Assembly: GCA_964584265.1 (NCBI GenBank)
Contig: CAZOZI010000002.1
Span: 66,340-130,339 of the forward strand
Length of the DNA stretch: 64,000 nucleotides
Source of the DNA: an uncultured Candidatus Saccharibacteria bacterium
GTDB taxonomy: Bacteria; Patescibacteriota; Saccharimonadia; Saccharimonadales; CAYVSP01
Direction: 5' to 3'
Under the pieces are notes generated by a model. That model saw only the letters and a list, made by a program, of their open reading frames with translations, did not search any database and was not told where the DNA came from. The position numbers and the translations under genes were made by a program. Positions 11,418 through 61,304 of this stretch are shown one piece after another. Position 1 is the first letter of the stretch, and each line of letters begins with the position of its first letter.

Positions 11418-12869
11418 CTATTTTTTTACTGGCGTGTTTTCTTTGCGTGGAAACAACGTTCCTTCAACAGGGCGAACCACGCCCTCGTTAAAGGTCTGAC
11501 GGATTTTTACGGCAGTTTGGGGCAAAAATGGCTCCAGCAAGTCAGCTATCTCCAGCAAGCAACTTGCCTGGTATGCCAACACTTCACGCAGATGATCTGT
11601 ATCCTTTTGCTTGTGCAACTCCCATGGTTTTTCCTCGTCAATATATTGATTAAGCCCACGGACTTGTTCCCAGACTTCGTCAAGTGCACGATCAAACCGG
11701 CAATCTTCCAGTGCTTTGTTGTATTGTGCCATGTCGTGTTCGGAAGGAGGGATATTACCAATCAGCCCATTTTGATATTGCTTAATCATTGCCGTAGTGC
11801 GCTGGACAGCGTTGCCTAGTTCGTTAGCCAGCTCATTATTGTAAGCATCATGCAGCAGGGCCAAGCTAAACTCACCATCGTCGTAGCTTGGAATATGGCG
11901 CAGTAGATAGTAGCGGAAGGCTTCATTGCCATATTGTTTGACAACGTCTTGTGGCGCAACCGTGTTACCAAGGCTCTTACTCATTTTGGTGCCACCTTCA
12001 GCATTTATGAATCCATGCACATATAAAGTTTGAGGCAAAGGCAATTTAAGCCCAAGTAGTATACCGGGCCAGATAGCAGCATGGAAGCGTAAAATATCCT
12101 TACCTATAACTTGAATGTTGGCTGGCCAGAACTTTTTAAAATCACTATGTTCAGGGTAGCCGAGCACTGTAATATAGTTCATCAGAGCCTCGAACCATAC
12201 GTACATCACCTGTGTAGTATCGCCCGGTACTGGAATGCCCCATGCAATTTTTTCCTTTGGGCGGCTGACACTAATATCCTCAAGGCCAGCATTTATGACA
12301 GATAAAATCTCACGTTTGCGAGTGGCTGGGATAATGCGAAATGCGCCACTATCTATAGCTTGTTTAATCTGCGGCGTGTACTGGCTAAGTTTAAAGAAAT
12401 AGTTTTCTTCTTCGACTTTTTCATATGGTCGATTGTGGTTTGGGCAAACGCCCTTATTTTCTTTAACTGTCGCTTCTGTGAAGAAGGCCTCATCACCGGT
12501 ACAATACCAGCCGGAGTATTTTCCTTTGTAGATATCTTTAGCTAATGCTTCCCAGATAAGCTGGGCGCGCTGTTCATGTCCCTGATCAGTTGTGCGAATA
12601 AAGCGGTCATTACTAATATTGAGCAGTTTGCACAGGTCACGGAAGTGCTGACTCACTTGATCGCTAAAGGCTTTAGGTGTAAGTTTTTGCTCGGCCGCTT
12701 TTTCAGCAATTTTACCGCCATGCTCATCTGTACCCGTACTGAAAAGAACCGGTTTACCTTCAGCGCGTGCGTACCGTGCCAGAACGTCCGCAATAACAAA
12801 TTCAAAGGCATGCCCAAGATGAGGCTCACCATTTACATAGGGAATAGACGTGGTTACATAATAATTCAT
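11418..12869 (-). CDS. metG: Methionine--tRNA ligase (short form)
   Basis: 483 aa with a HIGH-type motif (PHLGHAFE) and KMSKS. Confidence 0.95.
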   Translation of the reverse strand: MNYYVTTSIPYVNGEPHLGHAFEFVIADVLARYARAEGKPVLFSTGTDEHGGKIAEKAAEQKLTPKAFSDQVSQHFRDLCKLLNISNDRFIRTTDQGHEQRAQLIWEALAKDIYKGKYSGWYCTGDEAFFTEATVKENKGVCPNHNRPYEKVEEENYFFKLSQYTPQIKQAIDSGAFRIIPATRKREILSVINAGLEDISVSRPKEKIAWGIPVPGDTTQVMYVWFEALMNYITVLGYPEHSDFKKFWPANIQVIGKDILRFHAAIWPGILLGLKLPLPQTLYVHGFINAEGGTKMSKSLGNTVAPQDVVKQYGNEAFRYYLLRHIPSYDDGEFSLALLHDAYNNELANELGNAVQRTTAMIKQYQNGLIGNIPPSEHDMAQYNKALEDCRFDRALDEVWEQVRGLNQYIDEEKPWELHKQKDTDHLREVLAYQASCLLEIADLLEPFLPQTAVKIRQTFNEGVVRPVEGTLFPRKENTPVKK

Positions 12870-12874
12870 CTCGC

Positions 12875-13034
12875 TCCTTCATATCACACCGGCCTGTTTC
12901 TAGCAGAGCCAGAACTCTGCCGGTGTTCTTGGCACTCTGCTATGTCAGAGACTGCGGTACTCATTCACCGTACCTATTTGTACGATTCATTCTGTTCCTC
13001 GCCTCTTCCTTGCATTGTGCACAAGTATGAAGAA
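12875..13034 (-). repeat. Family A structured intergenic element, copy 1 (sense on the minus strand), directly upstream of metG
   Basis: 160 nt. P1 TTCTTCATA/TATGAAGGA, P2 AGAGGC/GTCTCT, P3 CGTAC/GTACG, P4 ACACCGGC/GCCGGTGT. Shares junction blocks with the five other copies. Confidence 0.75.
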
Positions 13035-13060
13035 CCGATGTACTGGTCTATTGTATCAGT

Positions 13061-13582
13061 TTATAGCAGTGATACTTGCTGGTTGTCTGACTTTTCTGGC
13101 GTTGAATTAACGCCCGAATTAGGTATAGAAATGTTAAGCTTATCAGCTAGCCTGTCAATAAATACCATTTGTGCCTTCAATAGTTTTGTTTTGGCAGTGG
13201 CCAAATCAAACCATTCAGCTCGATCGTTTTCTAAAAACTCCTGTGTTTTGCCAGACCGAGGTGGCCACTCCATGGTAAAAGTTGATTCAAACTTAAGATG
13301 TTCTAAATGTACATCGCCTTGAACCGCCCAAATGTAATTGGTTTTACTACTACTTTTGGCTGTACCCAGATTAAGAAGTTTACCTGTAGGTGGTCTTATG
13401 CCTAATTCTTCTTCAAATTCTCGCTTAGCTGCAGCTAGATGGTCTTCGTCATTATTATGCTCGCCTTTTGGGATGGACCATACATCTTTTTTTTCCCAAA
13501 ATGGTCCAGCTAGATGGACCAGCAAAACCTCAATGCTGTTACCTCTTTTTCTATAAACCAATATCCCGGCGCTTTGTTTCAT
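13061..13582 (-). CDS. Nudix hydrolase
   Basis: 173 aa with Nudix box GEHNNDEDHLAAAKREFEEELGI. Confidence 0.85.
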   Translation of the reverse strand: MKQSAGILVYRKRGNSIEVLLVHLAGPFWEKKDVWSIPKGEHNNDEDHLAAAKREFEEELGIRPPTGKLLNLGTAKSSSKTNYIWAVQGDVHLEHLKFESTFTMEWPPRSGKTQEFLENDRAEWFDLATAKTKLLKAQMVFIDRLADKLNISIPNSGVNSTPEKSDNQQVSLL

Positions 13583-14024: not shown

Positions 14025-14088
14025 ATCTCAAACAAATCCTCGACGCGAACGCCAGTTAGTCAATAAATTCGGCGAATCATATTGATAA

Positions 14089-14242
14089 CTGATCTGCTTG
14101 AGTGCAGTGCAAGGAGAATTTGAGGAGCAAAGTGAGCTGTATTGAAATACAGTGAGCGCGCGCCGGAAAATTCGACACAGCAATGTGCCAAGAGCCGGCA
14201 GAGTTGCCAGCTCTGCCGGCAATCAGGACGGCGACAGATTAG
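14089..14242 (+). repeat. Family A structured intergenic element, copy 2
   Basis: 154 nt. P1 CTGATCTG/CAGATTAG, P2 GAATTT/AAATTC, P3 CTGTAT/ATACAG, P4 GCCGGC(AGAG)/(CTCT)GCCGGC. Lies between the convergent 80-aa ORF and the trehalase gene. Confidence 0.75.
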
Positions 14243-15496
14243 CTAATCAATAAATTCTTTGCAGAATCGCTCAAAAACAGCATTCGTCCAGCCAAAGCCG
14301 GTCTGCGAAGGATAAAGCCCTTTAGCCGGCGGATCTAGCGGATTCACCACATTGTATTTTTCCAAAAAAACACCGTGGACTTTAAACCAATCCAGGTTGG
14401 TGTGGAGCCACTTTTCGGCAATACGCTTTGCGTCATGATTGTAGCCATAGCGCTGTAGTCCCTTAACTACCAAAAAATGCAGCGGCGCCCAGCCATTTGG
14501 GTAGGCCCACTGGGTCGGCACGGCGCCGGGTACAAATTTACTGAACACTGGCGTATCGGTCGTAGCCAGACCACCTTTGTTTTCAAAGCGTTTCAGCATT
14601 TTGACCATCTGGGCGGCTTGATTACTGTCTACCATACCGGCCCACATTGGATAAAACCCGGCTAGAGAGTTCACGCTGCCGCGTTTACGCTTTGCAAAAT
14701 TATAATCATAGTACCAACTGCGCACACTGCTCCACATAAGGTCTTGCATAACCATTTTGCGATGTTCTGCTGCTTCCTTCCATTTCTGGACAGAAGCTTC
14801 ATCTTTAACATGCTCATAGTAGCGGACAAAGTCCGTCTCGTATTTATAAAGTAAGGCATTTAGATCAACTGCTACATAGTCTAAACACTTGCGGTTAAAG
14901 CGTGAGGTCATATCCCAACCGCTTTCCGTTTCGGCCAAATCATGAATATAGTTAAAGTCATAGAAGCGTGACAAGCCCTGGTAAACTTGCCTGGCGTTAG
15001 GTTTATTAACCCCCATCCAAACCGTCTGATATTCGGCTTCTGCTACGCTTATAGCTTCACTAAGCCATTTGTCGTCGAGTTTATAGGCATCGAATACATC
15101 CCATATGAAACTAGTTAGGAATGGTGGCTGTGAATGCCCCGTTAAATAAGTACGCGAAGCATTGGGAATAGTTTTAAAACGCCTAAAAAGCACCAGAAGA
15201 TTTTCAATAATACCTATTATCAACTCCTTGTGTTCCTCGTCGAACATACCCTGGACCATAAAATAGCTATCCCAGTAATAGAGCTCGTTAAAATCAAATT
15301 CATGACCTTCTTCATAAGCGGGTACTAGATAAGGCTTTGGCAAGCCAACTAGCGTTTCATCATCTTTAGGGTGATAACGAATTAATTTTTCCCAATAGCC
15401 ATGAATGTAATCGCGCGCCGGTTGAACATCCCTAGCAGTCAGCTCACCATGCGAACGAAACAGCCCTTTTACAAGTTGAAAGGTTTTATTTAGCAT
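14243..15496 (-). CDS. Trehalase (glycoside hydrolase family 37-like), no signal peptide
   Basis: 417 aa with YYWDSYF and PTQWAYPNGWAP motifs characteristic of GH37 trehalases. Confidence 0.8.
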   Translation of the reverse strand: MLNKTFQLVKGLFRSHGELTARDVQPARDYIHGYWEKLIRYHPKDDETLVGLPKPYLVPAYEEGHEFDFNELYYWDSYFMVQGMFDEEHKELIIGIIENLLVLFRRFKTIPNASRTYLTGHSQPPFLTSFIWDVFDAYKLDDKWLSEAISVAEAEYQTVWMGVNKPNARQVYQGLSRFYDFNYIHDLAETESGWDMTSRFNRKCLDYVAVDLNALLYKYETDFVRYYEHVKDEASVQKWKEAAEHRKMVMQDLMWSSVRSWYYDYNFAKRKRGSVNSLAGFYPMWAGMVDSNQAAQMVKMLKRFENKGGLATTDTPVFSKFVPGAVPTQWAYPNGWAPLHFLVVKGLQRYGYNHDAKRIAEKWLHTNLDWFKVHGVFLEKYNVVNPLDPPAKGLYPSQTGFGWTNAVFERFCKEFID

Positions 15497-21566: not shown

Positions 21567-22055
21567 TTAGCTGCCGAAGATTTTGTGCCAGAGCCTAACT
21601 AATAATTTTCCGTTTCTCTTCGCCTCTGCTTGGTTTCTCTGCGCCCTTGCAAGCCTAATTTCACCGAGTTGAATTTCACGTTCTCTACTTATCTCAGAAT
21701 ACCATACTTGGTAGTCTTCATAGGCTTGCTTCGGAAATAACGCAACAGAAACTGCATTTGGATTCCCACTGCATCTTACAGTTTTATCATCTGCCACCTC
21801 AACTATGCAACCGTCAGCAAAATAGATATACCATTCCTCACCAAATTTTTCAGATAATTGCCTTGGTAATTCCGCTGGAGAACCAAATGTTACACCAAAA
21901 GACCCTAGATAATATCCATCCCCTAAATCCATATCCCTTTCAGGATTATTTACTATCGGACAAGACGCTACATCGAAGTCATCCCTAAGTACTCGATGGA
22001 TATTATGCCAATCTTTATTTACCTCTATTATTCCTGCACCTTCCACATATTCCAT
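21567..22055 (-). CDS. Hypothetical cytoplasmic protein
   Basis: 162-aa ORF with an ATG start and no motif. Sits between PG-binding paralogs 2 and 3. Confidence 0.45.
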   Translation of the reverse strand: MEYVEGAGIIEVNKDWHNIHRVLRDDFDVASCPIVNNPERDMDLGDGYYLGSFGVTFGSPAELPRQLSEKFGEEWYIYFADGCIVEVADDKTVRCSGNPNAVSVALFPKQAYEDYQVWYSEISREREIQLGEIRLARAQRNQAEAKRNGKLLVRLWHKIFGS

Positions 22056-23223: not shown

Positions 23224-24123
23224 TCAAACGTCAGGTGTGTAATCACGGCTCTCACGTTTACCATTTTCGTCGACATAGGTTGCTTTTAGATCTTTTAGAT
23301 CTGGGTATTCGTGAGGGTAATCAAGATACCAGTAGGGTCGATTCCTCTGGTCACGGTACTCGGCTTGGCCGTAAGCGACCATATAGTTGGTATATACACG
23401 GGGTGCGCCTATTACGTCTAATACTTTCTGGTATGGCTCAACTACTTGATCCTCTACTCGCCACTGCAAAGTGTCAAGATTATAAATAAGATAAAACAGC
23501 GAATCAATCGCAAACATAAACACCGAAATTATAATAATTGAGATTAGCCCTCCGGTATTAAGTAGGAGTAACGACAAAATCACCACTGTGCCAAGTGTTC
23601 CAGAAATAAACCATTCCAATCCGGATAGTCTACTGCCAATTAAACCAACTTGGGTGCTACGGGCATTGATAAGGCCGGATAAGCCAAACAGCATATTGCT
23701 GTAGGCGGCTGCGCCCTCTGGACTTTTCTTGTCGCAGTCATTAATTGCTTTTACTAGATTTTCAAAAGCGTAATTTGTCTTGTAGTAATACGCAACATGG
23801 TGGATTTGAGTTGCTTGTATATATGACTCGATTGCATTGTTCATGTGCTTGACATACTTTTTGTCTTCGAGCGGAAGAGTGAGGTAGTAGAAGTTCAATA
23901 ATGCTGAGCGTTCATTATTCGCCTGTGATCGAATATTTACCATCCGTGTTTGCCTGTGAGCTAAAACATACGCATTGAAAGTTCCGAAGAGGAATGTAGA
24001 CATGCCTATTAATGCAATTGCCGATGAGTTCTTAGCGTGAAAATTTATTAAGCCAAACAGCGTAACAATAAAAATGATTGCTGCATAACGCAGTGGCCGA
24101 TTGTGAATATAACGGCTGTTCAT
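23224..24123 (-). CDS. Hypothetical membrane protein (two N-terminal and two C-proximal TM helices)
   Basis: 299-aa ORF. Only the hydrophobicity pattern supports the call. Confidence 0.5.
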   Translation of the reverse strand: MNSRYIHNRPLRYAAIIFIVTLFGLINFHAKNSSAIALIGMSTFLFGTFNAYVLAHRQTRMVNIRSQANNERSALLNFYYLTLPLEDKKYVKHMNNAIESYIQATQIHHVAYYYKTNYAFENLVKAINDCDKKSPEGAAAYSNMLFGLSGLINARSTQVGLIGSRLSGLEWFISGTLGTVVILSLLLLNTGGLISIIIISVFMFAIDSLFYLIYNLDTLQWRVEDQVVEPYQKVLDVIGAPRVYTNYMVAYGQAEYRDQRNRPYWYLDYPHEYPDLKDLKATYVDENGKRESRDYTPDV

Positions 24124-25251: not shown

Positions 25252-25662
25252 ATGGTGGAGCTGCCGGGTACTACCCCCGGGTCCGCTAGTTTATCTGGTT
25301 AGTCTTCTACAGGCATAGGTCATTTGATTACTGCAAGACATAGAAATGACCAAAAAGTCTTACAGGTTGATTCAATTGTCTTAACCAAATGTCGAATCAA
25401 ACATTTGATGCATCCAGATTATATGACACGCACTGGCAATATCTGGCGTCAGGCTAGGCGCGGTTAAAGCTAATTAAGCCTTAACAAAAGATGGAGCTAG
25501 CGGAGAGATAGAAGCAACAAAGTTGTCTACCTTACCTTGAATGCTAGCTACAAATTCGCGAATTCGTGATTTTGCACTTATTCGTGGTTGCCATATGACG
25601 CTTAGCAAGCGACCTGCTGATCTAACCGATAAAGTCCAACGTCAAGCTTAAAATTCAGCCCC
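25252..25662 (-). ncRNA. ssrA: tmRNA (ssrA)
   Basis: The 5' end is GGGGCTGAATTTTAAGCTTGACG and the 3' end is GGACCCGGGGGTAGTACCCGGCAGCTCCACCA. The acceptor stem GGGGCTG/CAGCTCC includes the G3-U70 alanine identity pair. An internal tag-like frame runs from GCA after AATAAGT to TAA. Confidence 0.85.
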
Positions 25663-30138: not shown

Positions 30139-32265
30139 CTATAGCTTTTCTAGTGGTGCAAATGCAGCATTGAGCTTTTTAGTGCCCTTGCCCTTGAAAT
30201 AGATAGTTATATTCTCACCTTCAACTTCTACAACCCGACCAGCCCCAAATAGTTTGTGGCGAACTTGATCGCCTTCGCTTAGCTCAGGCGTGTAAGCTGG
30301 TTCTTGATTTGCTTCATCATAGTGGTATATATCAGTTTCAAAAGCCATGCTTTGACTAGTAGGTTCAATTTCACTAAGAAACCTCGAGGGTGGGTTGTGT
30401 TGCGAGCTGCCATACAGCATGCGCAGATTGGCTTGAATAAGATAAAGCTCCTCTCTAGCCCGAGTCATGCCGACATAACACAGCCGTCGCTCTTCTTCCA
30501 TTTCGCCTTCGTCATATAGCGCTCTGGAATGCGGGAATATAGTTTCTTCCATGCCAGTCATAAATACTACCGGAAATTCCAAGCCTTTAGCCGCGTGCAA
30601 GGTCATAAGCGTCACGGCATTATTGCCAAAACTAGCTTCATCAATATCGCTAATCAATGAAACTTCCTCCAAAAAACCCGCCAGTCCAATGTCTTCATAT
30701 GATCTGGCTACACTTAACAGTTCACGGACGTTCTCTTGCCTGGCCTCGCCTTGGGGCGTGCCATCAGACAGATAGTCAAGATAGCCAAGTCGCCGGATCA
30801 AGCTGTCCAATAGACCAGTCAAGCTAGCTTCTTCAATAAGCTCATGAAACTTGGTTATAAGCTCGCCAAGTTCAAACAATGCTTTTTGGGCTTTAGGGGT
30901 TAACTCAGCACACTGCTCGGCCGATAAAAGCGCTGCATGTAAACCTTGATTTGTGTCTGTTTGAAAGCGCGAGAATACCTCTAGTGACTTTGGCCCAAGA
31001 CCACGAGTTGGCACATTAACAATACGTTGAAAACTAGCGCCATCTTCTGGTTGGTAAATCAAGCGCAGGTAGGCTACCAGATCTTTAATTTCTTTGCGCT
31101 CATAAAAACGCACGCTCCCAACAATACGATATGGTACTCCGTAGCGGATAAAACTCTCTTCTATAGAGCGGCTCTGGGCGTTTGTGCGATATAACACCGC
31201 AAAATCTTCATAGGTTCGCACTTTTATATCAGTGGTATTACGAATCCGCTGCACAATTGCCTCTGCTTCAGCTCGCTCACTATGCACTTGCATTATTTGG
31301 ACCGGCAAGCCATGGTCGGCTTCAGTCCACAACTTTTTATCTGAGCGCTGTAAGTTTTTGGTAATCACAGCGTGAGCAGCATCCAAAATATGCTTGGTGC
31401 TGCGATAGTTCTGCTCCAATTTAATTATGGTAGCCTTGGGATAATCTTTCTCAAAATTAAGAATATTGCGAAAGTCAGCACCTCGCCAACTGTAGATTGA
31501 TTGCCAATCATCACCAACTACTGCGATATTGTGCGCGGGATTGGTCAGCAATTTAATCAGTTTATACTGGGCTGCATTAGTATCTTGATATTCATCTATC
31601 AAAATGTAGCGAAACTGCGTTTGCCACTTGCTGCAGATTTGTTTCTGGGAGTCTAGCAAGTGGACTGTGCGGCCAATTAGATCATCAAAATCAAGTGCAT
31701 TGGAGGCACGCAGGATTTTTTCGTACTCAGGATAAACAAGTGCTGCAGCTCGTTCGGCTGGACTACTTTGCAGGCTGGCGTACTGAGTTGGTGTAACAAG
31801 TTCATTTTTGGCACTGCTAATAAGGGTGGCTAGCAAGCGCGGTGGGAAGCTCTTTTCATCAATATGTAATTGTTTGACGGCTTGTTTAACAGCGGCAAGG
31901 CGATCAGCTTCGTCAAAAATAACAAAGTTACGTGGGACACCAATATGTTCGCCGTCTTGCCTTAAAAGTCGTACACAAATGGAGTGAAAGGTTCCCATGA
32001 AAGGCATAAAACTACGGTTGTCGGCTCGCTCACTTAAAAGAGTGGCAACGCGTTCACGCATTTCACGAGCTGCCTTGTTGGTGAATGTGACAGCCAGAAT
32101 ATTGAATGATGTGGCTTTTTGGCTGGCAATTAGATAGGCAATCCGGTGTGTAAGTGTTTTAGTTTTACCACTACCAGCGCCAGCTAAAATAAGCAGTGGC
32201 CCTCCAGTCGATTCAACCGCGCGGCGTTGTTCGGGATTCAAACCAACCAAAACGTCTTTTAACAC
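30139..32265 (-). CDS. pcrA: ATP-dependent DNA helicase PcrA/UvrD
   Basis: 708 aa with Walker A AGAGSGKT and UvrD-family motifs. GTG start. Confidence 0.9.
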   Translation of the reverse strand: MLKDVLVGLNPEQRRAVESTGGPLLILAGAGSGKTKTLTHRIAYLIASQKATSFNILAVTFTNKAAREMRERVATLLSERADNRSFMPFMGTFHSICVRLLRQDGEHIGVPRNFVIFDEADRLAAVKQAVKQLHIDEKSFPPRLLATLISSAKNELVTPTQYASLQSSPAERAAALVYPEYEKILRASNALDFDDLIGRTVHLLDSQKQICSKWQTQFRYILIDEYQDTNAAQYKLIKLLTNPAHNIAVVGDDWQSIYSWRGADFRNILNFEKDYPKATIIKLEQNYRSTKHILDAAHAVITKNLQRSDKKLWTEADHGLPVQIMQVHSERAEAEAIVQRIRNTTDIKVRTYEDFAVLYRTNAQSRSIEESFIRYGVPYRIVGSVRFYERKEIKDLVAYLRLIYQPEDGASFQRIVNVPTRGLGPKSLEVFSRFQTDTNQGLHAALLSAEQCAELTPKAQKALFELGELITKFHELIEEASLTGLLDSLIRRLGYLDYLSDGTPQGEARQENVRELLSVARSYEDIGLAGFLEEVSLISDIDEASFGNNAVTLMTLHAAKGLEFPVVFMTGMEETIFPHSRALYDEGEMEEERRLCYVGMTRAREELYLIQANLRMLYGSSQHNPPSRFLSEIEPTSQSMAFETDIYHYDEANQEPAYTPELSEGDQVRHKLFGAGRVVEVEGENITIYFKGKGTKKLNAAFAPLEKL

Positions 32266-44523: not shown

Positions 44524-44548
44524 GCTTGCTACAATATAATTAATGGCA

Positions 44549-44713
44549 AAAACTCCGCATTTGAGTGCAATGCAAGGAAGCGTCGAGAAACGTAGTGAGG
44601 TGTACATAAGGTACATTGAACAAGTATCGGAGACGCTGACACCGCAATACACCAAAAGCCTCAGTAGAGTGGCTAGCTTTGCTAGACAGCAGGCTGAGGC
44701 GGTGCGAGGTTTT
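44549..44713 (+). repeat. Family A structured intergenic element, copy 4, directly upstream of the murD-like gene
   Basis: 165 nt. P1 AAAACTCCGCA/TGCGAGGTTTT, P2 AGCGTC/GACGCT, P3 GTGTAC/GTACAT, P4 GCCTCAG/CTGAGGC. Confidence 0.75.
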
Positions 44714-44715
44714 GC

Positions 44716-46029
44716 ATGAGGATTGCAATTCTTGGTTATGGTGCTCAAGGTAAAGCCGCTTATGAATATTGGAATAAACTTGGTAGCGAACTAACTATCT
44801 GTGACAGCAATGCAGCACTCGCTACACCAAACGGGGTTCAAACCAAGCTCGGCCAAGATTATCTAAAAGACCTGGCGAAATTTGATCTGCTAGTCCGCAC
44901 GCCTGCCCTACATCCCCGTGACATAGTTGCAGCAAATCCTGACCAACCAAACATTCTTGATAAAGTCACAACTGTAACTAATGAATTTTTCAAGGTTTGC
45001 CCAACCAAAAATATCATTGGCGTTACTGGCACCAAGGGCAAAGGCACCACCAGCACGCTGATTGCCAAAATGCTAGAAGCCAGTGGTAAAAAGGTGCATT
45101 TGGGCGGCAATATAGGCACCCCACCACTAGATATGCTCAAAGCAGGAATCCAGCCAAATGATTGGTTAGTATTGGAGCTAGCCAACTTCCAGTTGATTGA
45201 CCTCAAAGCTTCCCCAGCTATAGCTGTCTGCCTTATGGTAGTACCGGAACATATGGATTGGCACAGTGATATGAACGACTATATCGCTGCTAAGCAACAG
45301 CTTTTTGCTCACCAATCATCAAGCAATGCAGCAATTTATTATGGACTCAATCCAACTTCGCAACATATTGCCAGTGTAAGCCCCGGCCAAAAAATCCCTT
45401 ACATGAAACATCCTGGAGCTGATGTAATAGAAAATGCCGTGGTTATCGACGGCCAAACCATCTGCAAAGTTGATAAGCTTAAATTGCTCGGCAAGCACAA
45501 CTGGCAAAATGTCTGTGCTGCCGTTACTACTGTCTGGCAGATAGATAAAAACGTTGAGGCTATACGTTCAGTCATCACCACATTCACGGGTCTTGAACAC
45601 CGCTTAGAATTAGTTCGTGAACTCAATGGTGTAACTTATTACAATGACTCATTCGCTTCTGTCCCAGATGCCACAATAGCCGCCATTAAAGCCATAGATC
45701 AACCAAAGGTGGTGATTGTCGGGGGATTTGAAAGAGGCTTAGATTTAACTGAACTCACCCAGGCTTTTGTGGCAAATCAAAGCACCATAAGTAAAGTTCT
45801 TTGTATCGGCGTAACCGGTTCTAAAGTTGCTGAATCTCTTAAGAAAGCTGGTTTCACCAACTATGAAGTCGTTGCAGAAAAAAGTATGAATAACATCGTC
45901 AAAAAGACACAGTCTACGGCTCAGTCTGGGGATGCGGTGCTTCTTTCACCTGGCTTTGCCAGTTTTGATATGTTCAAAAATTTTGAGGAACGTGGCCTGC
46001 AATTTAAAGAGGCGGTCAATGCACTATGA
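44716..46029 (+). CDS. murD: Mur ligase, MurD-like (UDP-MurNAc-L-Ala--glutamate ligase; possibly the L-Glu-adding MurD2 type)
   Basis: 437 aa with P-loop GVTGTKGKGTT and N-terminal ILGYGAQGKAAYEYW. It is 4-nt ATGA-coupled to the next gene. Confidence 0.75.
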   Translation: MRIAILGYGAQGKAAYEYWNKLGSELTICDSNAALATPNGVQTKLGQDYLKDLAKFDLLVRTPALHPRDIVAANPDQPNILDKVTTVTNEFFKVCPTKNIIGVTGTKGKGTTSTLIAKMLEASGKKVHLGGNIGTPPLDMLKAGIQPNDWLVLELANFQLIDLKASPAIAVCLMVVPEHMDWHSDMNDYIAAKQQLFAHQSSSNAAIYYGLNPTSQHIASVSPGQKIPYMKHPGADVIENAVVIDGQTICKVDKLKLLGKHNWQNVCAAVTTVWQIDKNVEAIRSVITTFTGLEHRLELVRELNGVTYYNDSFASVPDATIAAIKAIDQPKVVIVGGFERGLDLTELTQAFVANQSTISKVLCIGVTGSKVAESLKKAGFTNYEVVAEKSMNNIVKKTQSTAQSGDAVLLSPGFASFDMFKNFEERGLQFKEAVNAL

Positions 46030-47318
46030 GTAAATACAACACTTTTATGTTTAAAGATTATCAATTTGACATAGCCGCTAAAACCCTGCAACTACACTAC
46101 AGTTTTGACGAGCAACTCAACTTTAATGAGATATATAAATTTGATTTTGATTTCGTAGATTACAGCGAACATCAACTCGATATTGCTTTGCAAAGTTTGT
46201 TCTTAATGGCTGGCGTTTCGTATTATAAAACCTATTTGCCTCAGAAAATCGAATTCCAAATGCCCATCAGTCTTGATCAAGCTAGTCTCAACTTCTTTGC
46301 CAAAACCTACCAAAAAGGTCTGGGAGAATTCTTTTATACAAATCACCTTAATCCAAATACGCCTGTTCAGTTTCCGCCAAGTTCTGCTCACGCACAGCCT
46401 ATTGAAGCAGATGATAATAATGGATTATTGATTGGCATTGGGGGAGGTAAAGACTCTTTGTTAAGTGTAGAGCTTCTACGCGACCAGCCCAAAATAGCCA
46501 CCTGGAGCGTGGGACATCGCACACAACTCACACCACTAGTCGAAAAAATAGGTTTGCCACACTACTGGGTAGACCGCACGATTGACCCGAAGTTGCTGGA
46601 GCTGAAAAATAACCCAGATGCCTATAACGGCCATATCCCGATCTCTGCAATTCTGGCTTGCGTAGGTGTAATAGTGACAATCCTGACTGGCTATCGTGAC
46701 GTAGTGGTTTCCAATGAGAGCTCTGCCAGCGAACCAAATCTTATATATCAAGGCATACCGATTAACCACCAGTACTCTAAATCTCTCGAATTTGAGAAGG
46801 ACTTCCAGCAATTCCTAAAGTGTTATTATGGAGAAAGTCTACGTTATTATTCTTTCTTGCGACCATTGAGTGAACTACATATTGCCAAATTATTTGCACG
46901 AGTTGGGTTTGAAAAGTACAAAAGTGTGTTTAGCTCATGTAATCGAGCCTTTACTCAACACAGTGATCATATGTTTTGGTGTGGTGAGTGTCCCAAATGT
47001 GCATTTACTTTCTTAGCCCTAACGCCATTTATTGATCGAGAAAAACTAGAAGCCCTATTTGAGGGCAAAAATCTGCTATTGGATCAAAAGCTAGAGGCAA
47101 CCTATCGCCAGTTATTGGGCATTGAAGGCGACAAACCTTTAGATTGTGTCGGTGAGGTCAAAGAGTCACGTGCCGCGATGAGGCTAGCTCAGAAAATATA
47201 CCCAGAACTATCAAAATATCAATTCGAGATACCCAAAGAATATGACTATCTTGCTCTCTCGTCGCACAGTATGCCTGCAGAGCTTTTTGTAGTTTTTCAA
47301 GCAGCAATCAACTTCTAA
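46026..47318 (+). CDS. PP-loop ATPase-like protein with a CGECPKC motif, coupled to murD (candidate MurL-type epimerase)
   Basis: 430 aa with a GIGGGKDS PP-loop-like motif and FWCGECPKCAF. Start overlaps the murD stop. Confidence 0.4.
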   Translation: MSKYNTFMFKDYQFDIAAKTLQLHYSFDEQLNFNEIYKFDFDFVDYSEHQLDIALQSLFLMAGVSYYKTYLPQKIEFQMPISLDQASLNFFAKTYQKGLGEFFYTNHLNPNTPVQFPPSSAHAQPIEADDNNGLLIGIGGGKDSLLSVELLRDQPKIATWSVGHRTQLTPLVEKIGLPHYWVDRTIDPKLLELKNNPDAYNGHIPISAILACVGVIVTILTGYRDVVVSNESSASEPNLIYQGIPINHQYSKSLEFEKDFQQFLKCYYGESLRYYSFLRPLSELHIAKLFARVGFEKYKSVFSSCNRAFTQHSDHMFWCGECPKCAFTFLALTPFIDREKLEALFEGKNLLLDQKLEATYRQLLGIEGDKPLDCVGEVKESRAAMRLAQKIYPELSKYQFEIPKEYDYLALSSHSMPAELFVVFQAAINF

Positions 47319-49420: not shown

Positions 49421-49490
49421 CTGTGCTATTGTAACCCAATATTGCAAAAACAGGGGTAATTTGCTAAAGTTCCCGTAGTTTGACCAAATC

Positions 49491-49656
49491 AGCTTGCTTG
49501 GCTTTAGGCTAGTGCTAGGAAAGCCGCTGTTTGTGAGGTCAGTTGTATATAAATACTGCTGGCCGATCAAATCAGCGAGATTAACACCGCAATAGTCAAA
49601 GAGCACAAACAGAGTTTTGACTCTGTCAAAAGCAGGTTTGTGCGGCCAAGCAAGTT
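49491..49656 (+). repeat. Family A structured intergenic element, copy 5, ending 2 nt before tRNA-Lys
   Basis: 166 nt. P1 AGCTTGCTTGGC/GCCAAGCAAGTT, P2 CGCTG/CAGCG, P3 GTAT/ATAC, P4 GCACAAAC/GTTTGTGC. Confidence 0.7.
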
Positions 49657-49658
49657 GA

Positions 49659-52243: not shown

Positions 52244-52348
52244 CTAGGAGTTTCGGCGGCGCGCTCGGCCGCTTGCCCTGCCCCCCATACTCGAAATTTC
52301 GCGTTGACGAGCTTTATCCATTGCCGCAAATCCGCGTTTTTTTGCCAT
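52244..52348 (-). CDS. Small KGG-repeat / general-stress-type protein (34 aa), below the ORF-track size cutoff
   Basis: Manual translation gives MAKKRGFAAMDKARQREISSMGGRASGRARRRNS. GGGAGGG lies 5 nt upstream of the ATG. The GFA.MD...REI...GG pattern is typical of KGG stress-induced proteins. Confidence 0.6.
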   Translation of the reverse strand: MAKKRGFAAMDKARQREISSMGGRASGRARRRNS

Positions 52349-52423: not shown

Positions 52424-52588
52424 ACAAGTTCGCATCGCATGGGCCTGCTGCCCAGCTGAACTGGCCACTCTGCGCATGCTTTTAGCGTGGTGCGATGTCA
52501 GAAACTCCGCTACTCGTTCACCGTATAATCATACGACTCACTCTGTTGCTCGTTTCTTCCTAGCACCGCATCCAAATGCGAAACTTGT
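52424..52588 (-). repeat. Family A structured intergenic element, copy 6 (sense on the minus strand), between the DHFR-like gene and the KGG ORF
   Basis: 165 nt. P1 ACAAGTTTCGCAT/ATGCGAACTTGT (one bulge), P2 AGAAAC/GTTTCT, P3 CGTAT/ATACG, P4 GCATG/CATGC. Confidence 0.75.
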
Positions 52589-52593
52589 ATGAA

Positions 52594-53082
52594 TTAAGCT
52601 TGATTTCGTCGCCAAACTTCAAAATGATAGGTTATAGCATTCTCGGTAATGGGTTCGCTCTTGGAAACAAGCTTAAAATCACGTTCAAACTCAGGAAAGA
52701 ACTTGGTGCAATTAAAGTCACCAGTTAGTCGTGTTAAGTGCAGCTCCTCCGCTAAATCCATTGTGCTTTTAAATAACAGAGCACCGCCCGTATTCCATAC
52801 ATCGGTTTTACAGGTTTTTAGGAATTCACGCCCGTCTGACACTGCTACAAAACCCTCTCGCAGTTTTTCGTGCACCCCACGCATGGCAACATAATTAATC
52901 TTATGTTCGTTCTCATATGGCCGCGAAAGTTCAACGTACAAACCAAAGCCCATGAGTATGTAACCCTTCTTGATTTTGTTGCGGTAGTAGTGCACATCAG
53001 TTGGCACTTTACCTTGCCATGGGAGGCCATGCTCATCTGCAATGCCCCGCTTGCTGTCAATCGCAGCAATAAAACGAATCAT
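52594..53082 (-). CDS. folA: Dihydrofolate reductase-like protein
   Basis: 162 aa. The N-terminal IAAIDSKRGIADEHGLPW aligns to the DHFR IAA...IG....PW motif. Adjacent to folC. Confidence 0.7.
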   Translation of the reverse strand: MIRFIAAIDSKRGIADEHGLPWQGKVPTDVHYYRNKIKKGYILMGFGLYVELSRPYENEHKINYVAMRGVHEKLREGFVAVSDGREFLKTCKTDVWNTGGALLFKSTMDLAEELHLTRLTGDFNCTKFFPEFERDFKLVSKSEPITENAITYHFEVWRRNQA

Positions 53083-57447: not shown

Positions 57448-58065
57448 ATGAAACAAACTACTGACCAACCGCTTCATAGCCTTAACAATGTATTGACAGT
57501 TATTGCCCTAACTTTGGGCATATACATTATTGCAGTGCCCTTTTTGCCAGAGTTTAGATGGCGGGTAAAACAAGTGTTTAACAAGCCGGAAGCCTCCAAA
57601 GTGCAAATTACCAGCAACGACAGTAGTGCGAGCAACAATTCATCAACCCAGCCGATATCAAGCGATACATGGTTGGATGTTCCGCGACTCAGTCTTCATA
57701 CGCCAATTTATACTAGCCCGTCAATGTCAGAGCTCAATAAAGGTGTTTGGCATATCCCCGGTACCAGCACCCCCGATAAAGATGGTAATACTGTAGTGGC
57801 GGGACACCGTTTTACCTACACTAATCCGCAAGGTGTCTTTTATTTTCTTGATAAGCTACAGATAAATGACCGCGTAACCGTTGATTGGCGAGGCACAGAA
57901 TATACATATAAAGTGACCAAAGTTTTTGTTGTTCCCCCCTCGGATACATCAGCAAGCGCACCTACCAAAGTTAATACATTCACCATGTATACCTGCACTC
58001 CGCTTTTAACTGCCAAGAACCGGTTAATTGTGCAAGCTGAACTAGTTTCTAAGAGGACATCATGA
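57448..58065 (+). CDS. Sortase (cysteine transpeptidase)
   Basis: 205 aa with an N-terminal TM. Catalytic His is in VVAGHR, Cys in TMYTCTP, and Arg in KNRLIV. Confidence 0.85.
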   Translation: MKQTTDQPLHSLNNVLTVIALTLGIYIIAVPFLPEFRWRVKQVFNKPEASKVQITSNDSSASNNSSTQPISSDTWLDVPRLSLHTPIYTSPSMSELNKGVWHIPGTSTPDKDGNTVVAGHRFTYTNPQGVFYFLDKLQINDRVTVDWRGTEYTYKVTKVFVVPPSDTSASAPTKVNTFTMYTCTPLLTAKNRLIVQAELVSKRTS

Positions 58066-59514: not shown

Positions 59515-59539
59515 ATGCTAACAGATTAACATGAATAAT

Positions 59540-59614
59540 GCCCCTCGCAGGAATTGAAACTGCAAACCTCTGGCACTGGAACCCAACGCTCACCCAAGCT
59601 GAGCTACAGGCGCC
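59540..59614 (-). pseudogene. Degenerate tRNA-like sequence (Trp-CCA-like anticodon arm), probably non-functional
   Basis: The sequence is GGCGCCTGTAGCTCAGCTTGGGTGAGCGTTGGGTTCCAGTGCCAGAGGTTTGCAGTTTCAATTCCTGCGAGGGGC. The D arm and T loop are recognisable. However, the acceptor stem pairs at only 3-5 of 7 positions, G53-C61 is broken, and no CCA is encoded. Confidence 0.35.
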
Positions 59615-60272: not shown

Positions 60273-61304
60273 ATGTATGTGCTGCAAAACGTTCCTTTAA
60301 GTTCCTACTCGACAATGCGGCTGGGCGGTCCAGCAGCATATTTAACAGATATTAACAGCCGGCAAGAAATTACCGAGGCATTAGCTTGGGCTGAGAGTCG
60401 ACAGTTGCCAACCATAATGATTGGTAGCGGTAGTAACATTGTCTGGACTGATGCCGGATTTCCAGGACTAGTCATGGTTAATAAAATCAGCCGGTTCGAA
60501 GACTTTGCCGAAGATGAGCAAAACCACTATATTACTTCGGGTGGCGGCGATAACTGGGATGTACTGGTTGCTAAAACCGTTGGTATGGGGCTTAGCGGCA
60601 TTGAATTTTTATCACTGATTCCGGGTACGGTTGGGGCGACTCCTGTCCAGAACGTCGGTGCTTACGGCCAAGAATTATCAAACGTTTTGGTAAGTGTCGA
60701 AGCGTATGACAAACAAACCAAAAGTTTTGTGACAATTTCCAATAGTGACTGTGCGTTTGCCTACCGTACAAGCCGATTTAAAACTACTGACCATGGACGC
60801 TTTTTTATCATTAGTATTACGCTTCACCTTATGAAAACTAACCCTGCCCCACCCTTTTACGACAGCCTAGAGGCCTATCTGCAAGCTGACGGTATCCGTG
60901 AATACACACCACAAATAATCCGCGACGCCGTTATTGCAATTCGCAACAGTAAACTACCTGATCCGGCTAAAGTGGCAAATAATGGCTCCTTCTTTGCCAA
61001 TCCAATCATTGATGAGGATACGTTTATGCAATTGCAATCGAGCAGTCCAAACATTATGTCGTGGGAGGTGGATGACGGCCGTAGAAAGATCTCGGCGGCG
61101 TGGTTGGTTGAGCAGGCCGGCTTTAAGGACGTGCATGATGCTGAGACTGGAATGGGGACGTGGCCTAAACAAGCTCTTGTGTTAGTTAACGAACATGCTG
61201 AACATACGTCTGACTTATTAAAGTTCAAGCAAAAAATTATAGATGCAGTTCAGACAAAATTTGGCATTACCTTGCAACAAGAGCCGGAGTTGCTTGGAGC
61301 ATAG
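60273..61304 (+). CDS. murB: UDP-N-acetylenolpyruvoylglucosamine reductase
   Basis: 343 aa with an N-terminal FAD-binding pattern (YSTMRLGGPA...GSGSN). Confidence 0.88.
   Translation: MYVLQNVPLSSYSTMRLGGPAAYLTDINSRQEITEALAWAESRQLPTIMIGSGSNIVWTDAGFPGLVMVNKISRFEDFAEDEQNHYITSGGGDNWDVLVAKTVGMGLSGIEFLSLIPGTVGATPVQNVGAYGQELSNVLVSVEAYDKQTKSFVTISNSDCAFAYRTSRFKTTDHGRFFIISITLHLMKTNPAPPFYDSLEAYLQADGIREYTPQIIRDAVIAIRNSKLPDPAKVANNGSFFANPIIDEDTFMQLQSSSPNIMSWEVDDGRRKISAAWLVEQAGFKDVHDAETGMGTWPKQALVLVNEHAEHTSDLLKFKQKIIDAVQTKFGITLQQEPELLGA

Follow-up and report, generated by a model that had tools for sequence, protein, structure and literature searches.

The methionyl-tRNA synthetase (MetRS) gene metG in the 64,000-nt stretch of DNA analysed here (the window, which MetRS homologs place in Saccharibacteria, Saccharimonadales) is preceded by a folded leader, and the only Shine-Dalgarno (SD) sequence of the gene lies in the closing helix of that leader. 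This locus raises the question of whether the leader is a switch made for metG. The answer favoured here, with a probability of roughly 0.55, is that it is one copy of a dispersed, insertion-derived structured repeat, named Family A, which resembles the Rickettsia palindromic elements (RPEs) and now serves as the metG leader, where it occludes its own SD sequence; it would not be a metG-specific sensor.

metG (11418..12869, minus strand; ATG at 12869..12867) encodes a MetRS of 483 amino acids (PF09334, E = 1e-101). The complete Family A element in its 5' leader, copy 1 (c1), spans 12871..13038 on the minus strand with U13038-A12871 as the outermost pair. The match to the covariance model covers 13034..12874 (164 bits, E = 2.4e-41), and the boundaries of the insertion are defined by the empty site of a relative, L005. 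The minus strand at 12890..12867 reads GGTGTGATATGAAGGAGCGAGATG. The closing helix, P1, pairs a 5' arm, TTCTTCATA (13026..13034, minus strand), with a 3' arm, TATGAAGGA (12875..12883, minus strand), which lies 148 nt downstream, and it continues beyond a G/G mismatch as TCG (13038..13036) against CGA (12873..12871). RNAfold recovered this helix together with the three extra pairs, and the helix so extended stops 1 nt short of the ATG. AAGGAG (12874..12879, minus strand) is the sole SD-like sequence before metG. It lies 4 nt from the ATG, with CGAG as the spacer, and five of its six bases are paired in P1. The sequence-only reading of this DNA had placed the metG SD in the 3' strand of P1 and its pairing partner about 150 nt upstream, and both statements hold.

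The 206-nt metG leader has a predicted folding energy of -75.3 kcal/mol (z = -7.1 against dinucleotide shuffles, with none of 200 shuffles as stable). In the predicted Boltzmann ensemble, the unpaired probability of AAGGA is 0.002-0.009, which corresponds to more than 99% pairing. Opening the region from -15 to +4 around the metG start is predicted to cost 10.8 kcal/mol; across 56 open reading frame (ORF) starts in the window, the median cost is 6.6 and the 90th percentile 11.1 kcal/mol. These predictions suggest that the RNA folds in the cell and that P1 affects the translation of metG.

A -10-like hexamer, TACAAT (13050..13055, minus strand), precedes the first P1 pair by 11 nt. It is conserved both in the relative L002 and in the element-free L005, in which 9 nt separate it from the metG ATG. 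The stricter two-hexamer promoter scan did not call it, and its -35 region is poor. TACAAT is therefore only a putative metG promoter; since it is conserved just upstream of P1, the element is probably within the metG transcript. No sequence support was found for a start site downstream of the element, the finding that the sequence-only reading had named as contrary to its proposal. The only promoter-like match near the 3' end of the element (12887..12858) would start transcription inside metG and was rejected as a chance match. A 248-amino-acid ORF (12576..13322, plus strand) runs antisense across c1 into both neighbouring genes and is almost certainly spurious.

The Family A element is a three-way junction of about 160 nt, formed by P1, P2 and P3 with almost no unpaired junction bases. 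In c1, P2 (12928..13025, minus strand) is a long hairpin interrupted by three internal loops, among them two facing loops (UGA/UGA, tandem G-A type) and a conserved AAGGA/GACA loop, and P3 (12886..12926, minus strand) is a hairpin with the conserved internal loop AGAGU/CAG. All five copies in the window have this architecture: the sequence of P1 varies, P2 is long and carries three internal loops, and the AGAGU/CAG loop sits in the P3 hairpin. The covariance model was built from four copies, with P1 outside the model. In the alignment of the 51 model matches, which is biased towards the modelled structure, standard pairs fill 92.9% of the cells and both-sided changes occur at 39 of the 45 pairs. 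The covariation score is 0.606; shuffled columns give 0.196 and slid partners no more than 0.08. P1 is conserved in pairing: 8.94 of the first 10 positions pair on average in 52 copies, versus 6.0 (standard deviation 0.14) when the arms are swapped between copies, while the 5' arms are only 40% identical pairwise and the median length of P1 is 13 bp. G-U exceeds A-C in the stems (128 to 62 overall, and 42 to 14 in antisense contexts). The fold is conserved and covaries at the level of the family. Covarying stems with invariant bases in the loops are a trait shared with riboswitches.

Only some metG leaders of related genomes carry the element. The orthologs of L001 and L002/L003 (83-84% protein identity) keep it, with the same 5' arm and the SD GGAG in the 3' arm. 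The orthologs of L004 and L005 (76-78% protein identity) have 56-63 nt upstream without the element. The empty site is TATACAATAGACCGGTC followed directly by ATG in L005 and TATACTGACACG followed directly by GTG in L004, and the window site is TACAATAGACCAGTAC, then the element (ATCGG...GGAGCGAG), then ATG. In other words, TACAATAGACC is kept in the window and is followed by the whole element, with both P1 arms and the SD, and then by the ATG. Judged from these empty sites in relatives, the element was inserted as a whole, P1 arms and SD included, between the putative promoter and the ATG. In L004 and L005 the -10 hexamer lies 6-9 nt before the metG start codon, and metG therefore looks leaderless in these element-free relatives.

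The same situation is found at murD, which encodes a Mur ligase. Copy 3 (c3; 44546..44715, plus strand; model match 44551..44712, 174 bits) stands directly before the murD ATG (44716). The 3' arm of its P1, TGCGAGGTTTTGC, holds the SD GAGG and ends at the ATG, and the predicted opening cost is 11.0 kcal/mol. At murD the element is shared by the window, L069 (86% identical) and L019, and the SD and its pairing recur in all three genomes. In L070, murD has no element and is preceded by TTGATA-N17-GATACT-N7-ATG. Leaderless genes look common in the genome of the window, in which both modes of initiation seem to be in use, since at 13 of the 57 window ORFs a TANNNT precedes the start by 5-10 nt and an SD is missing; a clear SD is present at 23 others. 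ORFs with a TAAAAT/TATAAT/TACAAT-like hexamer and no SD include 21567..22055, 23224..24123 and 30139..32265 (all minus strand), and further leaderless-looking ORFs are 52594..53082 (minus strand), 57448..58065 and 60273..61304 (both plus strand).

A target-site duplication is possibly present at trxB of L041 (CATG) and at metG (AT), and none is clear at murD (L067 versus L068) or at copy 2. At trxB (L041:3913-4077, minus strand) the element separates ATGACGCATG from CATGACGTCATAATGG. The rejoined flanks would give MTHDVIMVGAGP, which matches the L013 ortholog (…TTHDLVVVGAGP). The repeated CATG at this site may be a 4-bp target duplication at a palindromic site.

A search with nhmmer and the covariance model found five copies in the 64 kb of the window. 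Apart from c1 and c3, copy 2 (c2; 52425..52585, minus strand) closely follows the DHFR stop codon and precedes by about 75 nt a 34-amino-acid KGG-family ORF (52348..52244) whose SD is not in the P1 of c2. It is absent from the corresponding spacer in L069. Copy 4 (c4; 14088..14246, plus strand) is located between convergent genes; its 3' end touches the stop codon (14243..14245) of a trehalase gene on the opposite strand, and it has an ortholog in L001. The divergent copy 5 (c5; 49489..49658, plus strand; model match 49493..49653, 62 bits) has a P1 that ends one base before tRNA-Lys (49659). Overlap of P1 with an SD or start is present for c1, c3 and their orthologs and is absent for c2, c4, and the antisense and in-gene copies.

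An ORF overlapping the end of murD (46026..47318, plus strand) has no Pfam-A match. In L069 and L070 its orthologs carry the label MurL_N/MurL_epimerase_C, which hints that MurD and MurL form a pair for the synthesis of D-glutamate on the peptidoglycan precursor. Compared with the Rfam model, the transfer-messenger RNA gene (25253..25662, minus strand, 64.9 bits) carries about 70 extra nt, inserted directly behind the tag-coding region. A tRNA-like Rfam match beside tRNA-Arg (59539..59613, minus strand) scores exactly at the threshold (29.5 bits), was not called by ARAGORN, and may be a degenerate or unusual tRNA.

When copies from other genomes are included, the contexts become still more diverse. 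At nine unrelated genes (metG, murD, mutM, an rpsA-like gene, HIT, xth, a glycosyltransferase gene, trxB and one more), the 3' edge of P1 comes to within about 0-5 nt of the start codon or slightly overlaps it. P1 ends at the first base of tRNA-Lys in two genomes, and copies in the 23S-5S spacer end at the 5' end of 5S rRNA in three lineages. For 13-14 copies, the edge of P1 touches, overlaps or comes within about 14 nt of a stop codon on the opposite strand. The orientation classes relative to the neighbouring genes are ++ 8, -+ 6, -- 13 and +- 8, and 7 sense copies were scored inside an ORF (5 of them clearly internal). The set of neighbouring genes is functionally incoherent, and most copies are away from amino-acid genes.

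Two of these sites deserve description in their own right. In L018 (5745-6252) and L060 (1447-1951), the 23S-5S spacer contains two copies in opposite orientations, an antisense copy just after the 23S 3' end and a sense copy that ends at the 5S 5' end. The copies at one of these sites are very different, and a recent replacement there was considered and set aside as unsafe, since a comparison of the whole loci showed the two genomes to be about 80% identical outside the rRNA genes. In L001, an antisense copy (11434-11593, minus strand) between metG and tatD overlaps the last 27 nt of metG and supplies the C-terminal codons and the stop of a 486-amino-acid MetRS; in the window, the gap between metG and tatD is 7 nt and holds no element.

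About 10% of the copies are internal to genes. Five sense copies are flanked on each side by 60 or more open codons. Every one of these is in frame (frame s1) and free of stop codons, and their host genes are recF, a second Mur ligase gene, a DinB-like polymerase gene, dus and murD. The same frame is open in only about 21% of the copies outside genes. The MurD proteins P0135 and P0137 carry the insert peptide after ...PPLDMLKG, and their close relative P0130 represents the empty site; the insert is 171 nt. AlphaFold gave P0135 a normal MurD fold (pTM 0.82) with the insert (residues 148-199) as a loop of pLDDT below 50 between well-predicted elements, so the insert is predicted to be tolerated as a surface loop of MurD. 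In L047, lepA has no start codon outside the element. The in-frame, stop-free copies and the lack of an outside lepA start indicate at the sequence level that in-gene copies are translated and not spliced, and these copies keep the fold. trxB and a pilin gene look split, and an intron was considered for them; this candidate was ruled out by the five open-flanked copies, which are all in frame and stop-free.

Copies that stay at the same site are conserved beyond the third codon positions of the genes next to them. For c1 and its L001 counterpart, the element is 79% identical, compared with 73.5% of the metG nucleotides and 40% of third codon positions (window versus L002). The corresponding values are 86%, 72% (murD) and 48% for c3 and L069, and 72%, 74% (trehalase) and 47% for c4 and L001. 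Element identities of 72-86% against 40-48% at third codon positions show purifying selection on same-site copies across species. The differences in the stems are for the most part compensated: they comprise 6 double-compensated, 4 one-sided but kept and 4 broken pairs for c1/L001; 9, 3 and 6 for c4/L001; and 15, 2 and 4 for c3/L019. The tRNA-Lys copies of the window (c5) and L069 are 51% identical, no better than unrelated copies, which would fit separate insertions as well as drift without constraint. Within a genome, the identity between copies is only 51-70%, and the family is therefore old, without a recent burst.

The family is probably confined to Saccharibacteria. A degenerate pattern of the conserved loops, which detects only copies with intact loops, was scanned across one genome per species for 185,579 species. 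It returned 60 loci, about 38 of them in Saccharibacteria/Patescibacteria; the other 22 or so correspond to the level expected by chance and fail the model. The 51 model matches are all in Saccharibacteria/Patescibacteria loci from about 30 assemblies, often two or three per 8 kb, and L001 has three copies in 21 kb. Gene calls in the relatives' loci are ORF heuristics. A scan of viral contigs gave a single chance pattern match that was negative with the covariance model. A peptide profile (55 amino acids, low complexity) had only three short matches among 5.8 billion proteins, with a word index too coarse for this result to inform on host range. Rfam contains no family matching the element, either with the window at the gathering score or with 12700..13200 at E <= 10, where the sole match was a chance one to a long non-coding RNA; the ribozyme and group I/II intron models did not match the element either. 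A literature search of partial coverage under Saccharibacteria repeats, structured RNAs and leaderless genes found no earlier description, and the family is apparently undescribed.

Among known systems, the RPEs are the closest in description. PMC10969869 (section 4.2) summarises RPEs (Ogata et al. 2000) as self-folding repeats of about 150 nt in a reduced genome, where they occur in intergenic DNA, in RNA genes and, in frame, in many housekeeping genes. Family A is likewise a self-complementary repeat of 100-170 bp with many copies in the small genome of a host-dependent bacterium and with no known transposase. It occurs in intergenic DNA, within or beside RNA genes, and as in-frame inserts of unrelated housekeeping genes, whose proteins are predicted to tolerate the related peptide that it adds. 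The two are likened by description, with no sequence relation shown, and homology is unlikely because the phylum differs. Family A is also a three-way junction with conserved internal loops and not a simple palindrome, and its ends are variable in sequence but always paired. Only about 10% of its copies are in genes, while many stand exactly at starts, RNA 5' ends and stops, and its copies are old (51-70% within a genome), with same-site copies held by selection. [quoted passage not shown] Family A resembles them in being short and non-autonomous, in forming stem-loops in transcripts, in lying at gene boundaries and in being able to alter the expression of neighbours. However, its terminal arms are conserved in pairing and not in sequence (40% identity), it has no clear target-site duplication or near-identical copies, and its covariation is far above that expected of a decaying repeat.

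Family A shares with T-box leaders a structured leader of about 170 nt before an aminoacyl-tRNA synthetase (aaRS) gene, G-A loop motifs, and SD sequestration as in actinobacterial ileS T-boxes. But it has no T-box sequence, no specifier loop and no match to the Rfam T-box model (RF00230), even at E <= 10, which agrees with the sequence-only reading that a T-box architecture does not fit. The gene restriction of T-boxes is not observed: copies stand before murD, mutM, xth, trxB, tRNA-Lys and 5S, and inside recF, dus and murD. The sequence-only reading had also noticed AUGA twice in the P3 region of c1. Two AUGA motifs are present (12990..12987 and 12964..12961), but both belong to the long hairpin P2 and lie opposite one another in 2x2 GA loops. 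The aligned motif is GUGA in c2, c3 and c4 and is not kept in the divergent c5; the two AUGA are not Met codons on display. T-box, SAM (S-adenosylmethionine) and other aaRS-leader candidates were ruled out by the genomic contexts and by this AUGA/GUGA alignment. With translational riboswitches and RNA thermometers, Family A shares an SD or start in the 3' strand of the closing helix and a predicted opening cost of about 11 kcal/mol. It differs from them in its incoherent gene set, in its coding, rRNA-spacer and antisense copies, and in the near relatives whose metG has no element.

The favoured reading joins these results as follows. In an ancestor of this clade, a copy would have been inserted precisely in the gap between the promoter/start site of a formerly leaderless metG and its ATG. 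The insertion would have brought both P1 arms, and today it also holds the only SD. metG would now be translated from a 170-nt structured leader with the SD paired in P1. Because the only SD is paired there, ribosome access would have to depend on the opening of P1, and initiation would be constitutive and limited by structure, through breathing or standby binding. Sensing of methionine, tRNA-Met or MetRS by the element is unsupported, since copies stand at unrelated genes, tRNA, 5S and antisense stops and in frame inside genes, and since close relatives have an element-free metG. The leader is probably not a switch that senses methionine or tRNA. The sequence-only reading had seen in this fold the logic of a riboswitch or of a protein- or tRNA-responsive leader; the fold, the predicted SD occlusion and the predicted costly opening stand, and the step to sensing is unsupported in view of the generic contexts.

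Several observations weigh against this reading. No transposase was found beside the copies in the gene tables of the loci, nor a conserved terminal repeat or a near-identical pair of copies, and copies within a genome are as divergent as given above. Mobility is deduced from presence/absence comparisons only. In most 5' copies the outermost P1 pair is 0-1 nt from the start, a precision that exceeds random insertion followed by selection and hints at targeting or RNA processing. Start-codon copies without any SD occur in L020, L024 and L010, and therefore SD occlusion alone does not explain translation at these genes. Furthermore, the selection on c1 and c3 implies some role for the host, which could be a regulated one.

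A wider and less probable possibility is that Family A is a new portable RNA module. It would land or survive exactly where genes and transcripts begin or end, at the +1 of leaderless genes, at the 5' ends of mature tRNA and 5S, and at stop codons, and host selection would keep it folded because it controls initiation or end-processing of the RNA next to it.

Two of the observations above, the P1 end 0-1 nt from the start in most copies and the lack of an SD at several such genes, lend some weight to the alternatives. Two more specific alternatives were weighed, and both are unlikely, to about the same degree. The first generalises the logic of the sequence-only reading: the conserved core would respond to a global signal, be it a small ligand, a protein or the ribosome, with P1 as the expression platform, and metG, murD and the other genes abutted at their starts would be a regulon governed by the stability of P1. 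The aptamer-like arrangement of conserved nucleotides in loops between covarying stems is consistent with a receptor, as are the nine unrelated genes whose SD or start is abutted or covered by P1, the SD and pairing kept at metG and murD across species, and the purifying selection on copies in place. However, copies are also antisense on stop codons (13-14 copies), in the 23S-5S spacer and translated inside five genes, and we know of no riboswitch class that combines these three settings. The adjoining genes have no common pathway, metG of slightly more distant relatives manages without the element, and Rfam has no match. No alternative pairing against P1 was noticed, and no search was aimed at one.

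The second alternative takes the element as an RNA-processing module that is removed by a cut at the 3' edge of P1, through self-cleavage or through a nuclease of the host, to regenerate the native 5' end of a leaderless AUG, a tRNA or 5S; insertions at 5' ends would then be nearly harmless. It would account for a P1 that ends 0-1 nt before most starts and at the first base of tRNA-Lys and 5S, for such genes without an SD as those of L020, L024 and L010, and for ancestral genes that look leaderless. On the other hand, the SD kept across species at c1 and c3 would be needless in a leader that is removed, and cleavage would destroy essential mRNAs in which the in-gene copies are translated through with the fold kept. 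No Rfam ribozyme family matches the element, and the antisense copies are left unexplained.

The least probable alternative is a DNA-only structure, a single-stranded or cruciform intermediate of transposition or recombination with the RNA fold and SD occlusion as side effects. It would suit the occurrence of copies in either orientation to the host genes, the G-U surplus over A-C on the element's own strand even in antisense copies (42 to 14) and the clear presence/absence differences between relatives. But same-site copies are conserved far above neutrality with compensatory changes, unlike dead transposon copies, no transposase, conserved ends or young copies were found, and RNA is where one typically meets tandem G-A loops and a three-way junction as compact as this.

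For annotation, these results mean that this leader in Saccharibacteria genomes should not be labelled a metG riboswitch. Gene callers extend or interrupt ORFs through such elements, as in a 517-amino-acid MurD and the spurious 248-amino-acid ORF antisense to c1. For the reduced, episymbiotic lineage that carries Family A, they mean that a folded repeat can convert a leaderless gene to an SD-dependent one with a structured leader, that it can enter essential proteins as a tolerated loop, and that it can remain under selection across tens of percent of sequence divergence. If Family A is truly a portable module, it would represent a site targeting or RNA-end function without a described bacterial counterpart. 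If the precision of its boundaries reflects targeting or processing, it would point to an undescribed mobile or processing system in the Candidate Phyla Radiation, and it would offer a handle on how leaderless and leadered initiation interchange.

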